Both the position numbers and the translations under genes were made by a program. Below are positions 18,904 through 58,624 of a DNA stretch of 64,000 nt, in pieces; the first letter of the stretch is position 1, and the number at the start of each line of letters is the position of its first letter. Source of the stretch: Escherichia phage wV7; sequence record NC_019505.1, one strand, 5' to 3'. A model generated the notes under the pieces. The model was given only the letters and a program-made list of their open reading frames with translations. It was not told the origin of the DNA and made no database searches.

Positions 18904-19884
18904 TTATTTCAGAAGAGTAACCTCAGCGATTTCTTCCCAACCGTTTTTGTCGGTCATAATAAAGTCAGCAAGATAAAGAGCAGTACGCAGTGAAACATTG
19001 CGTAAACGATTAACATTGACTTTCATCCATGATAATGCTTTATAAGTTTCTTCATCAGAAAGACCGCGTTTTTGCATCATGTCAGTTGAAAGAATAACAT
19101 CTTCAACCCTGACCATAATTTCTTCATTAGTGTGAACACCCAAATCCAAATAAACTGAGCGGGACACTAGTGCTTGTAAATGTGGAGCAAGTTTAGTACC
19201 ACGGTCTAATTCGCGGTCAATGTCAACGTTTGTGATAAAAACAATCGTTCCTTTAAATTCAAACTCACGCTCAATGCCTTTTTCTTCTAAGTAAGAAGAT
19301 GCAGTGCTCCAGCAGACTTTACGGGTCTCTCCAGTGTCCAGAGCAGCTTTCAGAAGATTAAGAATGTCCATATCAGAGAAAACATCCACATCATCAATCA
19401 AAAGGACAGAATTCTCTTCACGATTATTCCAAAGCTGTTCATAAAGACCGATACCAGAGATTTTACCATTAATGCTTTTATACTCAATGTATCCAATATC
19501 ATTTGCTTTATTTAAAGCTTTATCCAAAGAATACGTTTTACCAATACCTGCCGCACCAGAGATAATTAATGAACGAATGTTTCCGTTAATAATACCATTC
19601 GTCATCATTCCCATAACATTAAATCTTTTATTAATGCGGGTTTTCATATCTTCATATGATTCTTTAACTTCTTCAACTTTTACACCATCATATGAAATGT
19701 CTGATTTGTAAACCCAAACACCGCGACGTTTACCGTCAATTTCAACAAAAACTTTACCATCTCCTTGTGCATCTACCGGAGCATTATCTGGGAACCATTC
19801 ACCTAAGAGCTCAAAAGTTCCAGAGATTTCTTTACCAAAGTAGATACCCTTATTGATAGTTACAGTTTTCATTTTATTCTCCAA
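18904..19884 (-). CDS. P-loop ATPase of unknown function
   Basis: 326 aa; Walker A GAAGIGKT and Walker B LLIDDVD; own early promoter upstream. Confidence 0.65.
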   Translation of the reverse strand: MENKMKTVTINKGIYFGKEISGTFELLGEWFPDNAPVDAQGDGKVFVEIDGKRRGVWVYKSDISYDGVKVEEVKESYEDMKTRINKRFNVMGMMTNGIINGNIRSLIISGAAGIGKTYSLDKALNKANDIGYIEYKSINGKISGIGLYEQLWNNREENSVLLIDDVDVFSDMDILNLLKAALDTGETRKVCWSTASSYLEEKGIEREFEFKGTIVFITNVDIDRELDRGTKLAPHLQALVSRSVYLDLGVHTNEEIMVRVEDVILSTDMMQKRGLSDEETYKALSWMKVNVNRLRNVSLRTALYLADFIMTDKNGWEEIAEVTLLK

Positions 19885-19906
19885 ATCCGTATCAGTTGAT
19901 AGTTGT

Positions 19907-19936
19907 ATAGTACCATAAAGCTTTATGCTTGTAAAC
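19907..19936 (-). promoter_or_regulatory. T4-type early promoter (upstream of P-loop ATPase gene)
   Basis: GTTTAC -35 and TGgTACTAT extended -10. Confidence 0.6.
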
Positions 19937-19960
19937 CGTTTTGTGAAAAATTTTTGAAAT

Positions 19961-19984
19961 AAAAAAGGGAGCCCGAAGGCTCCC
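19961..19984 (-). terminator. Rho-independent terminator (UUCG hairpin plus U-run)
   Basis: Minus RNA GGGAGCC-UUCG-GGCUCCC followed by UUUUUU. Confidence 0.65.
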
Positions 19985-19986
19985 TA

Positions 19987-21000
19987 TCATTTATAATAAC
20001 TTCGATGGTTTTCAAGATAGACCTTCTCAAGGAAGTCATCCCAGAAACCCATGTCTACTTTTTGCTGCATACCGTTCTTAGAAGCTTCAATAGATGCTGC
20101 TTCTACTTGATCGACCACATCTTCCAAAAACTCTTGAACCGTTTTAAATGGATGTTTACCCAACTTCACGTCGAGAATAAATGGAGCATCTTGAAGTGGA
20201 TAAATCAAGTCGCCAGTTTTGTAAATTTCCAATAGTTGGAGTCCACCACGACAAGCATGGCTCAGAGCTTTCCAGTCAATACCTTCATTGGCTTCAGCCT
20301 TACGAGCGCGTTCACCATATTCAGCATCTAATTTGTTCAGTGACTGCTTAAGCTCAATAAGAGAAAGCGTTGTCTGATATTTACGACCCAATACAGTGTA
20401 GAACGTTTGTGGGCCTGTTTTCTCATGATTATGGAACACCCATTCACAGAATTCGTTTTCTGGAAGACGATGCTTAATATCTTCAACTTTAGTGCGACGC
20501 TGCTTAATAGAACCATCTTCTTGGTAATCAATCCACTGCTCAGGGATTTGATTAACTACTTTCAATACATCGCGTAATGCAGCCAAACGAGAACCCTTGA
20601 CGCCGTATTTAGAAGCTTGCTTGCGGACATATCCTAAATATGATTTCATGTTAGTCGTATAAAAACGATAACGGTTGTCTTGAATAAACTTCCACACATC
20701 AGGCAAATCAGATTTAACCACTAGCTCAGGTGGGGTGTGAAGCATATCTAATGCTACAGTTTCACCATCTGCTGCTAATTTAAAGAAATATTTAAGACTG
20801 TATAGTTCATGGTCAATATCATCTTTAGTGTTTTTAGATGATGTGTTGTTAGTGTTTTTACTCATGTGCTCTTTAACGTTTCCGATAAGAATATCACGAG
20901 CAGGAGGAACAAAGATTTCTTTAAAATCTACATCAGATTCTGGAGTAGAAGTTCCATAAAGATGACTACCAAAATAGCTTTTCATTACTGTTTTCATCAT
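19987..21000 (-). CDS. Predicted nucleotidyltransferase-fold protein
   Basis: 337 aa; N-terminal FGSHLYGTSTPESDVDF fits the G[SG]-x(9-13)-DxD polymerase-beta-type signature, with a later acidic residue in TVALDM; followed by UUCG terminator. Confidence 0.55.
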   Translation of the reverse strand: MMKTVMKSYFGSHLYGTSTPESDVDFKEIFVPPARDILIGNVKEHMSKNTNNTSSKNTKDDIDHELYSLKYFFKLAADGETVALDMLHTPPELVVKSDLPDVWKFIQDNRYRFYTTNMKSYLGYVRKQASKYGVKGSRLAALRDVLKVVNQIPEQWIDYQEDGSIKQRRTKVEDIKHRLPENEFCEWVFHNHEKTGPQTFYTVLGRKYQTTLSLIELKQSLNKLDAEYGERARKAEANEGIDWKALSHACRGGLQLLEIYKTGDLIYPLQDAPFILDVKLGKHPFKTVQEFLEDVVDQVEAASIEASKNGMQQKVDMGFWDDFLEKVYLENHRSYYK

Positions 21001-21458
21001 TCAGCCTTATATTCAATAACAGGACATACTTTAGCTTTACGAGCTTTTAAAAATTCAACGATAATCGATTTCTTGGGTTGAATAGGAGGTAAACCTTTAT
21101 TTTTCCTATCAATGTTTTCTACGTGTAAAGCATAATCCTTTTTCCATTTATAATCTTTATATTTTTCACGCAAATGTGCAGGAATAACAAATGAACCGAT
21201 AATAAGTAAAACAACCAAAAGCGCAAGTATAAATGCCGATGGAAGAAGAGCCCATAAACTACCGAAAATAAGCCAACGTTGTAGGCTTTCTGCACAAATA
21301 ATTGTTAACCCTACGAGTATAGCACACCCAAAAATAGAAACGAAAAATGTAGGTATGGCAATAGACCAAAAATATGCGCATAGTGTCTTAGGTCGTTGCC
21401 ATTCATCGTTAAACAATTTGAATAATTTATAGTGCCAAGAGTTTTCATTAATAATCAT
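20997..21458 (-). CDS. Membrane protein
   Basis: 153 aa with two or three hydrophobic helices. Confidence 0.55.
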   Translation of the reverse strand: MIINENSWHYKLFKLFNDEWQRPKTLCAYFWSIAIPTFFVSIFGCAILVGLTIICAESLQRWLIFGSLWALLPSAFILALLVVLLIIGSFVIPAHLREKYKDYKWKKDYALHVENIDRKNKGLPPIQPKKSIIVEFLKARKAKVCPVIEYKAE

Positions 21459-21460
21459 AA

Positions 21461-21982
21461 TTATCCTTTCATTGAAGGCGTAACGGTTGTTAAATACTTA
21501 ATCATAGCTTCAGCTTCTGATTTTGATAGTGAAATTTCTTCACCGTTTTGGCGAATAGAAACAAAATCTGGATGACGATCACCACCAGCTTTTAAAACAC
21601 ACATATAAGTATCAGCTTCGCCTTCAATATTTGAAATGATTGAAGCAGTTCCACACGAATGTGGTTTTTGATAAATCAATACAGCTTTTCTTCCACCATT
21701 TGACTGTTCATAGGCTTTTAATACATCAAACAAATCAGTTCTTTTATCAATAGCTAAAATGTTATTTTCATCTTCAATGTTAAATCCTTCGGATACTTCA
21801 TAAAGCGTTACCCATAAATCGCCAATATCAATAACAGCATTTACTTTTCCACGGCTTTCAAGAGTATGACAAATTTTCTTGATTTCGTCATAACTCATTT
21901 TAATAATATCATCTCCTTGACTAAGAAAGATGTCATTTTTAAATTCAACACGAATTAAACCGCTTCCACTTGAAATAAACAT
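21461..21982 (-). CDS. Hypothetical protein, tandem paralog A
   Basis: 173 aa; shares GFNIE core and C-terminal KYLTTVTPSM with the next ORF. Confidence 0.55.
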   Translation of the reverse strand: MFISSGSGLIRVEFKNDIFLSQGDDIIKMSYDEIKKICHTLESRGKVNAVIDIGDLWVTLYEVSEGFNIEDENNILAIDKRTDLFDVLKAYEQSNGGRKAVLIYQKPHSCGTASIISNIEGEADTYMCVLKAGGDRHPDFVSIRQNGEEISLSKSEAEAMIKYLTTVTPSMKG

Positions 21983-21988
21983 ATTTCC

Positions 21989-22543
21989 TCACTTTGAAAT
22001 CATAGTTGGAATAACAGAATCAAGATAAGTCTTTAGTGCAATAGTTTCGTCTTTGGTAAATGTGACAATATGTGCTCGAAAATCATCAATTTGACGAATA
22101 GTTAAGACATCTCCATCTTCATAACATTTTGATACGTTTAAAACAGTTTCATCATTCTGATTGCAAGCGTTAGTAATAATAGCATTGCAATTTTTAAACC
22201 ATTTTAAACTATGTTTTCTTTCATTAGAATAATAAAAATATTTAATCTTATCTATAAAACTATCCCAATGGATAACTGATAAGCATATTGACTCGCTTTC
22301 AATATTAAATCCTGGGCATGAAGAATAAAAATGAATTTTATGCTCATCATTAATGCTTATAATTTTATCAGTATAAGGATTTTCAATTTTGGTTAAATGA
22401 ATGATTTCACTAGGCGTAAAATACAGCATATCGTCTTCTTGTGTCAAACGATACATATTATTTACTTTTTCTATAGCCAATTCACCAAAAAGTGAACTAA
22501 CTTCTAATACTAATCGTTTCATATTAATCCTTTTTAATGGCAT
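21989..22543 (-). CDS. Hypothetical protein, tandem paralog B
   Basis: 184 aa; PGFNIESE core and C-terminal KTYLDSVIPTM align with paralog A. Confidence 0.55.
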   Translation of the reverse strand: MPLKRINMKRLVLEVSSLFGELAIEKVNNMYRLTQEDDMLYFTPSEIIHLTKIENPYTDKIISINDEHKIHFYSSCPGFNIESESICLSVIHWDSFIDKIKYFYYSNERKHSLKWFKNCNAIITNACNQNDETVLNVSKCYEDGDVLTIRQIDDFRAHIVTFTKDETIALKTYLDSVIPTMISK

Positions 22544-22802
22544 GAATTTGTTCTAAAATTTTAGAGTATTCCTTTATATCAGATTTACGTACAATCGATA
22601 CACTATAAGGCATACTATCGGTGTCTTTTATAAAGCGTTCCAAATGACACTCTAACAAAATTTCTGGATTATAAATCGTGTACATCAAATTACCTGTTGC
22701 TCCACGATATTGACAGATTTCTACTGATTGAGCATCATTCCACAATTTTGTTAAGACTAAATCACCTACTTCTAATTTAGGAAAGCCCATGTTATTCACC
22801 AA
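22524..22802 (-). CDS. Hypothetical protein
   Basis: 92-aa ORF. Confidence 0.45.
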   Translation of the reverse strand: MVNNMGFPKLEVGDLVLTKLWNDAQSVEICQYRGATGNLMYTIYNPEILLECHLERFIKDTDSMPYSVSIVRKSDIKEYSKILEQIHAIKKD

Positions 22803-22977
22803 TTAAAGTTTCAATATAAGAATCAAGATTTACTTTAGCTTCTTCCATAAGAGTTTTGTATTTAATCTTGATAGCATGTCCGGAGAAAGCTGATTCATCA
22901 ATAACTGTTGCTGTATGAACAGCTTTGCTATATGTTTCAATTAATTCTCTTAATTTAAAAGCCTGCTCACTCGTCAT
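22792..22977 (-). CDS. Small acidic protein (small-protein family)
   Basis: 61 aa; N-terminus MTSEQAFKLRELIE. Confidence 0.45.
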   Translation of the reverse strand: MTSEQAFKLRELIETYSKAVHTATVIDESAFSGHAIKIKYKTLMEEAKVNLDSYIETLIGE

Positions 22978-23129
22978 TACATACTCCTCTGAATCATATC
23001 AATAATGTTGTTCACCAGATTATAAGTAAACATTGGGTAATTATATTGAATCACCACATACACAACAAACAAAACTTTCATTCTCTTCTCCTGGCAGTTG
23101 ACAAGATTACTATACCATAACCTTGCCAA

Positions 23130-23303
23130 CTTGTAAACCATTAAATGACGTTTTCAATAAAATTCTGAAGCTTTGTGTGAGCATCAACCATGATTTTCAT
23201 TTCTTCTTTTGCGAAAGCTGTACCTCTTTCCCGAGCAGAATACTCATAGTCAGAAACTGCATTAGCGTATTCTTCAATTAGCTTCATTAAAAACATCTGC
23301 TTT
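23130..23303 (-). CDS. Possible small ORF (about 57 aa), below ORF-track threshold
   Basis: Hand translation MKTEKQMFLMKLIEEYANAV... fills gap. Confidence 0.3.
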
Positions 23304-23498
23304 TCAGTTTTCATTATTCCACCTAATCATTTCAAGATATTGAACTAACTTAGCTTTGGATTTATCCAAATCTCTTTTAGCTGCTTCTATACCGTCGTAT
23401 GAATATCCTTCACAATGCTCAACTGCTAATTGGTATGAATCTATTTCAATATCACGTGCTAATTTAATGATTTTTTCAAACTGTTCACGTGTTAGCAT
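23304..23498 (-). CDS. Small acidic protein (small-protein family)
   Basis: 64 aa; N-terminus MLTREQFEKIIKLARD. Confidence 0.45.
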   Translation of the reverse strand: MLTREQFEKIIKLARDIEIDSYQLAVEHCEGYSYDGIEAAKRDLDKSKAKLVQYLEMIRWNNEN

Positions 23499-23500
23499 AC

Positions 23501-23692
23501 TTAAACTCTCGTATTATGATCGATAATTTCATCAAGAAACATATCTAACGCTTCTACAGCATTATTAAATTTAGCTTCAAATTCTTCAATACCTGATAAA
23601 CCTGATAAGGCAAAGTTAATGCGTTCCTCATCTGCTTTACGAATTAAAGCTACCAATTCCTTAATTTTATCCGCTTGTTCGATACTAATCAT
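23501..23692 (-). CDS. Small acidic protein (small-protein family)
   Basis: Start at internal Met ([19 protein letters not shown]). Confidence 0.45.
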   Translation of the reverse strand: MISIEQADKIKELVALIRKADEERINFALSGLSGIEEFEAKFNNAVEALDMFLDEIIDHNTRV

Positions 23693-23880
23693 TATTCCAC
23701 CACATATGAAAGAGAGAATATTGCACACGCCATGTGAGTTGCAACTTCATCACACATATTATAACGTTTCTTAAGAAGTTCTACAAGTTCTTCACTAGTA
23801 ACTTCATCCATGTCGACGAAAAAATCACCATTAATGATGACGTAGATATTTCCTTCTTGATTGAGTGCTTCAATTTTCAT
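23692..23880 (-). CDS. Hypothetical small protein
   Basis: ORF 23692-23925; start at internal Met (MKIEALNQ...) downstream of an early promoter. Confidence 0.45.
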
Positions 23881-23908
23881 GATGTTCTCCTCTTTATCCG
23901 ATAGTTGT

Positions 23909-23938
23909 ATAGTACCACAGCTCAAACGGAAAGTAAAC
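23909..23938 (-). promoter_or_regulatory. T4-type early promoter
   Basis: GTTTAC -35 and TGgTACTAT extended -10. Confidence 0.6.
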
Positions 23939-23948
23939 CGGTAAAATG

Positions 23949-23970
23949 AAAAAAGTCTCCCGAAGGAGAC
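23949..23970 (-). terminator. Rho-independent terminator (UUCG hairpin plus U-run)
   Basis: Minus RNA GUCUCC-UUCG-GGAGAC followed by UUUUUU. Confidence 0.6.
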
Positions 23971-23975
23971 TAATG

Positions 23976-24362
23976 TTATTCGAGGGAAAGAAGATACTTA
24001 CTCTGGTAAAACATTCCAGTAATATCATCTATCGTGCTTTGGATGGCTGGAGGCATTTCTTTATAAATGCTGTTAGATTGGTCTAGTATGCGATCAATCA
24101 TTTTAATTGTGTCGGTAGGAAGTTTACTGGCATCTGGAATTGAAGGTGTGTATTTTCTACCAGAATACCCCAAATATTGCTCACCAAATTTATCAATCAA
24201 ATCTGGCAACTCGGAGAAAATAAAATCGTATGCTTTGTGTCTAGCATAATTTTTAGTTTCAAAATGCGCAGAATGAAAATAAGCTTGTGCAGCCATTAAT
24301 AAACCTAAGTATTCATCTGCCTTTGAAGGTTTTCCACTTTGTGAAAAGTCGCTGAATTTCAT
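23976..24362 (-). CDS. Hypothetical protein (rI.-1 position)
   Basis: 128-aa ORF directly downstream of rI, followed by UUCG terminator. Confidence 0.55.
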
Positions 24363-24652
24363 TCAGTCTCCAATTTAATGTTCATAATTCTAGCGTATGA
24401 TTGTGCCATCTCCGCGCCTCGCTCTATACATTCAAAATCAGAAGAGCACGGGTCATTTTTATAGGTCGTTCTCATAAAACTATAGAATTGTTCAGACGAT
24501 TCTACGCTTTTATTTTCAAAAAGCATATAAACGTGCCTAATACCAGATTCCATAAATTTATCAAAATGAGGATCGACATTCGCTTCAATTGGTGGAGATA
24601 AAGCAAACGCTAATCCTAGCATGGCAAATAGTGCCGTTGCTTTTAAGGCCAT
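24359..24652 (-). CDS. rI: Lysis-inhibition regulator rI
   Basis: 97 aa with signal-anchor N-terminus MALKATALFAMLGLAFALSP; near-identical to recalled T4 RI. Confidence 0.88.
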   Translation of the reverse strand: MALKATALFAMLGLAFALSPPIEANVDPHFDKFMESGIRHVYMLFENKSVESSEQFYSFMRTTYKNDPCSSDFECIERGAEMAQSYARIMNIKLETE

Positions 24653-24664
24653 AAAGGCCTCCTA

Positions 24665-24877
24665 TCATTTTTGTCCTGTATTTACTTTATGCCGATGCAC
24701 GGCCTTAACTTTATCAAGGTATTTTTCAAAATTTCGCAATCTAGTATAGTCTGCCGGAGATTGGTTGAGTGATACTTCTCGACGCAAAGCTGAAATGATA
24801 TTTCCAACTTCCCTACGAATTTCATCTAATTGAAGCACAGTAAGATTGCGAAGTTGCTTTTCAGTTAATTGTAGCAT
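24665..24877 (-). CDS. Hypothetical protein (rI.1 position)
   Basis: 70-aa ORF between tk and rI. Confidence 0.5.
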
Positions 24878-24919
24878 ATATACCCCTTTAGTTAGATAAA
24901 CCTATTTATAACTTTTGCA

Positions 24920-25501
24920 CTAACCGAGCTTTTTAGTTAATTCATTCCAATGTTTTCTACACAAAGAAACATAAATTTCATCACCAATACAGATTTGATT
25001 ACCTTCTTTAACTGGTGTTCCATCTTCCATTAATCGAGCTGTCATAATCGCTTTTTTGCCGCAATGACAAACTGCCTTTAGTTCAATAAGTTTATCTGCA
25101 ATCGCTAAAAGTTCTTTAGAACCTTCAAACAATTTTCCAGCGAAATCAGTCCTTAATCCATAAGCCATAACAGGAACATTATATGTATCAACAATTCGGC
25201 TCAATTGATGCACCTGTTCAGTTTTTAAAAACTGGGCTTCATCTACAAATACGCAATGAATATCTTTTTGTGCTTCAGCCCATTTATAGAACTCGAAAAT
25301 ATCCATATCATCTGTAATAATATTTGCTTCCTGCCTAATTCCAATGCGAGAAACGACTTCACAGACAGAATCGCGAGTATCAATAGCAGGCTTAAGAACT
25401 AATACACTCATTCCACGTTCTTTATAATTGTGCGCAGCAGTCAAAAGAGAAGCAGATTTTCCAGCATTCATTGCTGCATAAGTAAAAATTAAACTCGCCA
25501 T
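24920..25501 (-). CDS. tk: Thymidine kinase
   Basis: 193 aa; P-loop AAMNAGKS and C-terminal Cys cluster; matches recalled T4 tk length. Confidence 0.9.
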   Translation of the reverse strand: MASLIFTYAAMNAGKSASLLTAAHNYKERGMSVLVLKPAIDTRDSVCEVVSRIGIRQEANIITDDMDIFEFYKWAEAQKDIHCVFVDEAQFLKTEQVHQLSRIVDTYNVPVMAYGLRTDFAGKLFEGSKELLAIADKLIELKAVCHCGKKAIMTARLMEDGTPVKEGNQICIGDEIYVSLCRKHWNELTKKLG

Positions 25502-57166: not shown

Positions 57167-58624
57167 ATGATTGAATTAAAAGATTTACCTTTTGTTGATA
57201 GCGTTCCTGGCGAAGGTCAGGAACGTATTTCATGGATTAAAAATGGTGAAGAAATACTAGGAGCTAGTACTAAGTATGGAAACGATGGATCAATGAATAG
57301 ACCAACTGTGTCCGTATTTAAAAATGTTGAGGTTCTTGATGAAAATATAGGAATTCTTAAAACTGCCGTTGAAACATCACAGGAAGATATTAAAACAATT
57401 CAAGGCATTTTGGATGTATCTGGAGATATCGAAGCACTATCACAGATTAGCGTTAATAAAAATGACATATCAAATTTAAAGACGCTTACGAATGAACACA
57501 CTGATATATTAAATGGTACAAATACTACGGTTGATAATATTCTTTCTGATATTGGTCCATTTAATTCGCAAGCAAATTCAGTTTATAGAACGATTAGAAA
57601 TGATTTGTTATGGATTAAAAGGGAATTAGGACAATATGCTGGGCAAGATATTAATGGTCTTCCTGTTGTAGGAAATAGCAGCACGGGGATGAAGCACCGT
57701 ATCATTAATAATACAGATGCTATAACTTCCCAAGGAATACGTCTAAGTGATTTGGAAGAAAAATTTATTGAATCTGATGTAGGTTCACTGACAATTGAAG
57801 TCGGAAATCTTAGACAAGAACTTGGACAAAGACCATCTTCATTTAGTGAAAGCATATATTCACGTGTGCATAATTTAGATCAATCACAGATTAATCTTAG
57901 TTCCGAAATTAAATCTATCAAAACTTCTATTGGATATCCAGGAAATACTTCAATAATCACAGATGTCAATGTCAACAGTCAAGAAATTTCAGCTTTAAAT
58001 GATGAACTAAATAAAAGTGGCGGCGTTAAACAGCGATTAACTGTTATTGAAACATCGATTGGTTCAGATGATATTCCTTCTAGTATTAAAGGTCAAATTA
58101 AAGATAATACCACTTCTATTGAATCTTTAAATGGAATTGTAGGTGAAAACACCTCGTCCGGTTTAAGAGCTAACGTTTCATGGCTAAATCAGATAGTTGG
58201 AACTGATTCTAGCGGAGGTCAACCTTCTCCTCCGGGGTCTCTTTTAAATAGAGTTTCAACTGTTGAAACCTCTGTTAATAGACTTAACAATGATGTTCAA
58301 AACTTACAGGTTGAAATTGGTAATAACAATTCCGGAATTAAAGGGCAAGTTGTAACACTAAATAAATTAGTAAATGGAACAAATCCGAATGGTTCAACTG
58401 TCGAAGAACGCGGATTGACTAATTCAATAAAAGCTAATGAGACTAACATTTCTTCAATTAATCAAGAGATTCGTAGTATTAAAGGTAATGTGTCCTCATT
58501 GCAGAGGGATGTCCAGACTTTACAAGAAGCTGGTTATATTCCTGAAGCTCCAAAAGATGGTCAAGCTTACGTTCGTAAAGACGGCGAATGGGTATTGCTT
58601 TCTACCTTTTTATCACCAGCATAA
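57167..58624 (+). CDS. wac: Fibritin (whisker antigen control)
   Basis: 485 aa coiled coil ending in foldon [27 protein letters not shown]. Confidence 0.95.

Follow-up and report, generated by a model that had tools for sequence, protein, structure and literature searches.

Two long-diverged members of the MobD.1/Y05I family with a predicted PUR/PC4-like fold in the early region of a T4-like phage

Among large phages, none are better studied than T4 and its relatives, yet about half of their early genes still lack a known role. One family encoded in this region, MobD.1/Y05I, is catalogued in Pfam and PHROG but functionally uncharacterised. In T4, mobD.1 stands alone. Here we describe the corresponding locus in a 64,000-nucleotide (nt) stretch of Escherichia phage wV7 (NC_019505.1; hereafter the window), where a mobD.1 orthologue is followed by a second, divergent member of the family and by a gene for a small membrane protein. 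In T4, the gene of the HNH homing endonuclease MobD occupies the place of the latter two. The predicted fold of the two Y05I proteins leads to a different group of described systems, the PC4-like proteins. A review of this group distinguishes type I domains, in which a single chain supplies both units, from type II domains, in which each of two chains supplies one, so that single-unit proteins reach the fold by dimerising (PMC7549692). As of 2020, no factor other than Pur-alpha had been reported to combine the two types, its units I and II being followed by a dimerising unit III; MRP1 and MRP2 are an example of a paralog pair (PMC7549692).

A 2-kb slice at the locus matches Escherichia coli O157 typing phage 7 (KP869105) at 100% identity and hundreds of Tequatrovirus genomes at 96-98%. 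By sequence, the window is that of a Tequatrovirus, a T4-like phage. It has about 35% G+C and its early genes are on the minus strand. In annotated relatives, the locus lies between nrdC.10/nrdC.11 and mobD.2-mobD.5, rI and tk; nrdC.11 and mobD.2 flank it here as in T4. All three open reading frames (ORFs) reported in a first-pass annotation are present, each on the minus strand. The order of transcription is the 184-amino-acid (aa) ORF (21989-22543), the 173-aa ORF (21461-21982) and the 153-aa membrane ORF (20997-21458). The membrane gene, described at first pass as upstream of the pair, is therefore immediately downstream of it. The assignment of the locus to the place of the T4 mobD-region genes was correct, one copy being the mobD.1 orthologue, between nrdC.11 and mobD.2. 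This three-gene arrangement is common to at least 358 phage records, counting those that cover at least 80% of the 2-kb slice.

The two larger ORFs had been taken for duplicates, a claim that hung on their pairwise alignment. BLASTP finds significant similarity, with 27% identity over 176 columns (E=8e-11, single comparison). The first-pass annotation recognised no known domain in the pair. Both proteins match two Pfam models, in the same N-to-C order. PF24449 (T4_y05I_N) scores 116.2 bits with the 173-aa ORF and 130.3 bits with the 184-aa ORF (E-values 1e-33 and 4.5e-38; gathering cut-off 24.9), and PF24448 (T4_y05I_C) scores 82.2 and 70.1 bits (3e-23 and 2e-19; cut-off 27). Both also match PHROG 1502 over its full length (profile positions 1-178, E 1.5e-66 and 3e-80). 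The GFNIE core and the C-terminal YL..V.P.M motif, already noticed at first pass, are among the most conserved columns of the family. At the DNA level the duplication is visible only in the GFNIE codons, where 15 of 16 nt are shared between 21773-21788 and 22298-22313 (minus strand). Judged from these comparisons, paralogy and family membership of the pair are virtually certain. A third Y05I copy was not found within the window.

The 177-aa protein has 82% identity with T4 MobD.1 and the same genomic place. Its open frame, as first reported, does reach the ATG at 22543 (184 aa). The most likely start is nevertheless the ATG at 22522, giving a gene at 21989-22522, because an AAGGA ribosome-binding site precedes this codon by 7 nt and the stop of the upstream gene comes before it. 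KP869105 also annotates 177 aa, and the Pfam match starts at residue 11 of the 184-aa version. The 173-aa ORF corresponds to RB32ORF097c, and carries the GenBank note 'similar to mobD.1' in RB14 and RB32. About 430 phage records contain the 173-aa paralog at an identity of at least 80%, and 727 records contain MobD.1-family matches. Thus, two copies are the usual state of Tequatroviruses and T4 is the exception. Both proteins are acidic, with net charges of -7 and -8 and isoelectric points (pI) of 4.9-5.3.

Searches outside the family returned little. NCBIfam has no family for either paralog, and Pfam detects no HNH or His-Me finger nuclease domain in any of the three ORFs. A profile search against 1.84 billion representatives gave only 23 matches, of which the credible ones are all from T4-like phages; the long matches P0047, P0053 and P0054 are apparently repeat or composition matches. 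It returned no bacterial relatives from which to borrow a function. As far as sequence searches reach, the Y05I family appears restricted to T4-like phages. The pair itself is already annotated in most Tequatroviruses. In the library searched, no functional study was found on mobD.1, y05I, nrdC.11 or mobD, and the literature retrieved covers homing endonucleases (a review), genome reduction and promoter data. Several database labels on orthologues are misleading. The name 'molybdopterin-guanine dinucleotide biosynthesis protein MobD' has no corresponding match in Pfam or NCBIfam and was rejected; on RefSeq orthologues it looks like a confusion of gene names. In RefSeq/GenBank records, nrdC.11 also appears as 'thioredoxin', the membrane protein as 'prohead core protein', and the mobD.1 homologue as 'integrase/recombinase'.

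The evolutionary history of the pair was addressed with an alignment and tree of ten members, including mobD.1 orthologues from Tequatro-, Mosig- and Dhakaviruses. The 173-aa type, together with P0009, a T2-like variant that is 59% identical to it, shows 20-32% identity to every mobD.1 orthologue and branches outside all of them; for the 173-aa copy of this phage the values are 27-32%. The two genes are tandem homologues, but the tree rejects a recent tandem duplication in situ. On sequence grounds, either the duplication is ancient and was followed by losses, or the second copy was acquired by recombination from an unsampled relative. Copy number varies among T4-like phages: one in T4, RB69 and the Dhakaviruses, two in most Tequatroviruses, genes with only the C-terminal domain elsewhere, and broken genes in T2. 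Citrobacter phage Moon carries two tandem C-domain-only genes, gp107 and gp106 (L007, 2965-3201 and 3191-3421), which match T4_y05I_C with E 5.8e-25 and 1.7e-6 and lie directly upstream of the membrane gene. By sequence, they are an independent case of two tandem family copies.

Sequence comparison also identifies the locus as recombinationally active. The mobD.1 allele of RB27 (L009, 2498-3040) is 70% identical to that of RB69 (L008, 2998-3528) and 50% identical to that of T4, which indicates exchange between genera, with the Mosigvirus RB69 type, at this locus. RB27-type alleles are also observed in GiZh, Kha5h and vB_EcoM_112. In six metagenomic contigs (L029-L031, 3001-3540 / 1306-1845), both genes are replaced, between the tudor and membrane genes, by an in-frame chimera of 179 aa (P0011) composed of the mobD.1 N-terminal domain and the C-terminal domain of the 173-aa paralog. 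The chimera has the appearance of a deletion product, formed when one paralog recombined with the other, and its natural existence shows that the domains are modular. In another protein, P0048 (210 aa), the first ~50 residues of MobD.1 are joined to the C-terminal part of nrdC.11; it implies a natural deletion running from within mobD.1 through the paralog and the membrane gene into nrdC.11, whose 5' part is lost.

The ratio of nonsynonymous to synonymous substitution rates (dN/dS), calculated by the Nei-Gojobori method among Tequatrovirus sequences, is 0.14 for the paralog, 0.20 for mobD.1, 0.17 for the membrane protein and 0.05 for nrdC.11. The paralogs and the membrane gene are under purifying selection, because of which the idea that they are 'junk' ORFs was rejected. 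Several observations bear on their necessity. Loss of the nrdC.11-mobD.3 fragment was detected in T4 mutant populations in a genome-reduction study (PMC9825161). T4 has neither the paralog nor the membrane gene, and mobD.1 is truncated in RB14. In two T2 records, PV648363 (L005, 2440-3981) and PV958097 (L012, 1777-3318), frameshifts break both Y05I genes and, at its 5' end, the membrane gene, while nrdC.11 is intact; these records may share one laboratory, so sequencing error could conceivably contribute. In RefSeq, the T2 membrane protein (P0017) is likewise short. The genes are dispensable, since T4 tolerates loss of nrdC.11-mobD.3 and lacks two of them, and T2 carries the frameshifts.

AlphaFold2 monomer models were built with small family alignments and are confident, with predicted local distance difference test values (pLDDT) of 88.4 for mobD.1 and 84.3 for the paralog. 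Each model consists of three sheets of four or five strands with a helix after each, that is, three bbbb-a units. Search for structural similarities revealed MRP2/MRP1, the Whirly proteins PBF-2 and StWhy2, repeat III of Pur-alpha, Borrelia Pur-alpha, PC4/Sub1 and the phage T5 PC4 homologue; the best matches, by a clear margin, are nucleic-acid binders. A viral fold library returned mostly the Y05I family itself, with weak 'MOSUB' and 'Whirly' matches. The bbbb-a units of the models, two of which pack in one domain, are those of the PC4-like/PUR/Whirly class. On this modelling, a PUR/PC4-like fold of the pair is likely. In sequence, the pair does not match the profile of the PUR family proper (Pfam PurA, E<=1).

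In the models, T4_y05I_N appears to cover units I and II, with unit III falling in T4_y05I_C, a plan like that of Pur-alpha. Profile alignment with hhalign relates unit I to unit III (probability 80%, E 1.3e-5) and finds no similarity between units I and II or between units II and III. Unit I also matches DUF7189 (hhalign E 2.5e-5), a protein of 71 aa whose gene lies close upstream of Y05I in Dhakaviruses. By sequence, DUF7189 is probably a single-repeat relative of the Y05I family; its gene is found at 4773-4988 of L010, with equivalents in L006 and L016-L024. T4_y05I_C also exists as stand-alone proteins of 69-83 aa in other T4-like phages. Such stand-alone and tandem C-domain genes fit a half-domain that is completed by dimerisation, which makes a mobD.1/paralog heterodimer plausible. 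By analogy with the described systems, we find the case for dimerisation through unit III evenly balanced.

The explanation that best accounts for these observations overall, and in which we place a little more belief than doubt, is that of a long-diverged Y05I pair forming PUR-like dimers with an early role on single-stranded nucleic acid. The pair comprises two long-diverged members of the MobD.1/Y05I family, one the orthologue and the other an old paralog or an acquired copy, which in most Tequatroviruses sits between mobD.1 and the small membrane-protein gene. Units I and II would form an intramolecular PUR-like domain, T4_y05I_N. The half-domain made by unit III, T4_y05I_C, would most likely be completed by unit III of a second chain, and the proteins would act as homodimers or as a mobD.1/paralog heterodimer. 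The genes are non-essential early genes and would be transcribed from a Pe57954-type promoter with the membrane protein and nrdC.11. Their most likely activity, deduced from the fold only, would be the binding or remodelling of single-stranded nucleic acid, RNA or single-stranded (ss) DNA, early in infection. We infer dimerisation and the nucleic-acid ligand from models and comparison. Taken separately, nucleic-acid binding by Y05I proteins is a tentative proposal from the models, about which we have somewhat more doubt than belief.

A number of observations weigh against this explanation. The Y05I family is acidic (pI 4.2-5.8), with net charges of -19 and -20 in the Dhakavirus type, and few basic residues are conserved in it. 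PC4, Whirly, MRP1/2 and PUR domains are basic. Pfam PurA, Whirly and PC4 give no match with the pair at E<=1, and solved structures searched by sequence and by family profile yield nothing useful at E<=10. SsgA, the N-domain of KhtT and DUF4176 secretion chaperones, related folds whose entries carry no description of nucleic-acid binding, score nearly as well. On contigs that are not T4-like, homologues of the membrane protein occur without a Y05I neighbour.

These points bring in the membrane protein. The 153-aa protein corresponds to RB32ORF096c, annotated 'replaces mobD', and matches PHROG 944, 'membrane protein' (E 2.4e-50). It has no Pfam family, in line with the first-pass annotation, which recognised no known domain. 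Its description as a multi-pass membrane protein is plausible, with two long hydrophobic stretches (about 25-60 and 62-98) ahead of a basic tail; the pI of the protein as a whole is 9.5. Conserved motifs are SWH...LCxYFW at the N-terminus and KxKxCPxIE at the C-terminus. His9, Cys27 and Cys145 are invariant in the alignment, and might bind a metal or link the two ends of the protein by a disulfide. The family is wider than the T4-like phages, with 143 related clusters, none of which has a Pfam domain. In every T4-like Y05I locus fetched except T4, the membrane gene comes directly after a Y05I gene. This adjacency is kept for full-length and C-domain-only Y05I genes, and even where the membrane proteins are only 28-32% identical. 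Inserted genes sit between the membrane gene and nrdC.11, usually the next gene, and never between Y05I and the membrane gene. A functional tie of Y05I to the membrane protein is suggested, but the linkage may be mere conserved synteny, because the membrane family occurs without Y05I outside T4-like phages. The genes upstream of distant membrane homologues (L032, L036) and Moon gp104 were considered as hidden Y05I relatives and rejected (hhalign probability <1% in each case). In L032 (1895-3313) and L033 (1550-2968), which are not T4-like, a 472-aa protein matches Pfam Gad2, and a distant membrane-protein homologue is encoded two genes downstream.

The adjacency and the charges suggest a use of the fold for protein binding. 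Y05I proteins may be regulatory or chaperone subunits on the basic cytoplasmic tail of the membrane protein or, during takeover, serve as acidic decoys for, or inhibitors of, a DNA- or RNA-binding protein of the host. Acidic Y05I proteins (-7 to -20) would suit a basic partner of pI 9.5, the two genes adjoin in all fetched T4-like loci but T4, and in T2 all three genes are frameshifted together. However, mobD.1 is retained in T4, which lacks the membrane protein, no Y05I gene neighbours the distant homologues of that protein, and the adjacency could be inherited synteny. The structural matches that lead by a clear margin also bind nucleic acid. With these models we regard protein binding as rather unlikely, and retain the PUR-like dimers acting on single-stranded nucleic acid as the better explanation.

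The proposed transcription unit brings in a further gene, nrdC.11 (19987-21000, minus strand), the orthologue of T4 nrdC.11. It encodes a Pol-beta nucleotidyltransferase of the RlaP family (Pfam RlaP, 43.7 bits, cut-off 23). Upstream, a consensus scan finds a sigma-70-type early promoter on the minus strand (23137-23109), TTTACA-17-TATAGT with an extended TG and 10/12 consensus matches. The region is 97% identical to T4 sequence 57,921-58,000, and the promoter is the orthologue of Pe57954, named as a T4 early promoter (PMC6024815). The genes that follow are mobD.2, a DUF7438 gene, a Phage_tudor gene, mobD.1, the paralog, the membrane gene and, last, nrdC.11. The junctions are tight or overlapping, the stop of the membrane gene overlapping the nrdC.11 start. 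Right after the nrdC.11 stop, a terminator scan finds a strong intrinsic hairpin (19966-19985, minus strand) with 8 bp, 6 of them GC pairs, and a T-run, which by sequence would mark the end of the unit. Between 20 and 24 kb there are no MotA-box middle promoters and no late promoters. Co-transcription of the pair, the membrane gene and nrdC.11 is probable; we infer it from these consensus matches, as we do any tie of Y05I to the membrane protein or to RlaP.

Characterised RlaP enzymes extend the 3' ends of damaged RNA by 1-2 nucleotides, and the restoration of badly damaged tRNAs depends on them (PMC12776372). With nrdC.11, and perhaps nrdC.10 (an AAA ATPase), the Y05I proteins might form an RNA-repair or counter-defence module, as RNA-handling accessories that would bring the damaged ends of tRNA or mRNA to the enzyme. 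Putative co-transcription with nrdC.11 would fit, as would the known activity of RlaP on damaged 3' ends, the order Y05I, membrane, RlaP kept in Tequatro-, Mosig-, Dhaka- and Moon-type phages, and the binding of RNA by the PUR/MRP-type fold in other systems (PMC7549692). Yet evidence of co-occurrence comes only from T4-like genomes, where synteny is conserved anyway, and in several loci the membrane gene and RlaP are separated by inserted genes. Moreover, nrdC.11 is far more constrained (0.05) and persists in T2, where Y05I is broken. Both the module and the presentation of RNA ends are very unlikely. That the Y05I proteins are sequence-specific transcription factors, as the Pfam name 'putative transcription factor' and the first descriptions of Pur-alpha, PBF-2/Whirly and PC4 as transcription regulators would have it, is extremely unlikely: Pfam detects no helix-turn-helix or other domain that reads double-stranded DNA, the proteins are acidic, the library searched yielded no experimental paper on mobD.1, and T4 gene regulation is well mapped with, to our knowledge, no role assigned to mobD.1.

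Other features surround the pair. The Phage_tudor gene (22524-22802, minus strand; PF24144, E 5e-39; 88 aa from the annotated start) lies directly upstream of mobD.1, and is the same neighbour in Moon and in L025-L028. DUF7438 genes form a tandem array on the minus strand (22792-22977, 23141-23314, 23304-23498 and 23501-23728; Pfam E 1e-14 to 3e-17). These four genes are of the T4 mobD.2a/.3/.4 type and form a larger array upstream of the pair. The 'helicase loader' label of RefSeq on one DUF7438 orthologue has no profile support. A second hairpin terminator (23954-23971, minus strand, 7 bp and a T-run) is found right after an rI.-1 homologue, a DUF5856 gene (23976-24362), and separates its unit from the mobD.5-to-nrdC.11 genes. 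Rfam reveals no RNA families in 19000-25000.

As it stands, the locus holds a correctly spotted, already annotated paralog pair. What is added here is the corrected gene order and start, the old age of the duplication, purifying selection, probable co-transcription, the assignment to the PC4/PUR/Whirly fold with a three-repeat plan like that of Pur-alpha, and the tight linkage to the membrane gene. Two 'hypothetical proteins' thereby become a concrete proposal, a three-repeat PUR/PC4-like family that is probably dimeric. If nucleic-acid binding or the RlaP link holds true, the family would be a new player in phage RNA metabolism or counter-defence, and the domain plan of Pur-alpha would extend beyond eukaryotes. 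In the most far-reaching version, which we consider decidedly unlikely, Y05I would be the viral counterpart of the full Pur-alpha architecture, in which a PC4-like domain of type I is joined to a dimerising half-domain of type II. A paralog heterodimer would then handle ssRNA or ssDNA at the membrane with the membrane protein and RlaP, in a new early RNA-repair or counter-defence module of the T-even phages.

Among described systems, T4 MobD.1 (Y05I_BPT4) is the closest, and here the likeness is one of orthology, with 82% identity and a shared position, mobD.2 lying on one side and nrdC.11 on the other. The two-domain architecture of MobD.1 is also that of the 173-aa ORF. Where T4 carries a single copy and then the MobD HNH gene, this phage carries two copies and then the membrane gene; the MobD homing endonuclease is a separate T4 gene and is absent from this phage. 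With Pur-alpha, a eukaryotic protein of three PUR repeats that binds ssDNA and ssRNA, the phage proteins share the predicted domain plan but no detectable sequence similarity, so that common ancestry cannot be claimed. They are also acidic, without an obvious basic or aromatic binding surface. MRP1/MRP2, the guide-RNA-binding pair of trypanosomes, and the Whirly proteins (PBF-2 p24, StWhy2) have no sequence relationship to them. Unlike the phage proteins, MRP1/MRP2 and Whirly proteins are basic and tetrameric and have no third repeat. A mobD.1/paralog heterodimer would find its analogues in MRP1/MRP2 and in Pur-alpha/Pur-beta. The single-repeat PC4-like proteins (Borrelia Bpur, PC4/Sub1, the phage T5 PC4 homologue and YdbC) resemble the stand-alone T4_y05I_C proteins and DUF7189: all consist of one bbbb-a unit and must dimerise to make the fold.

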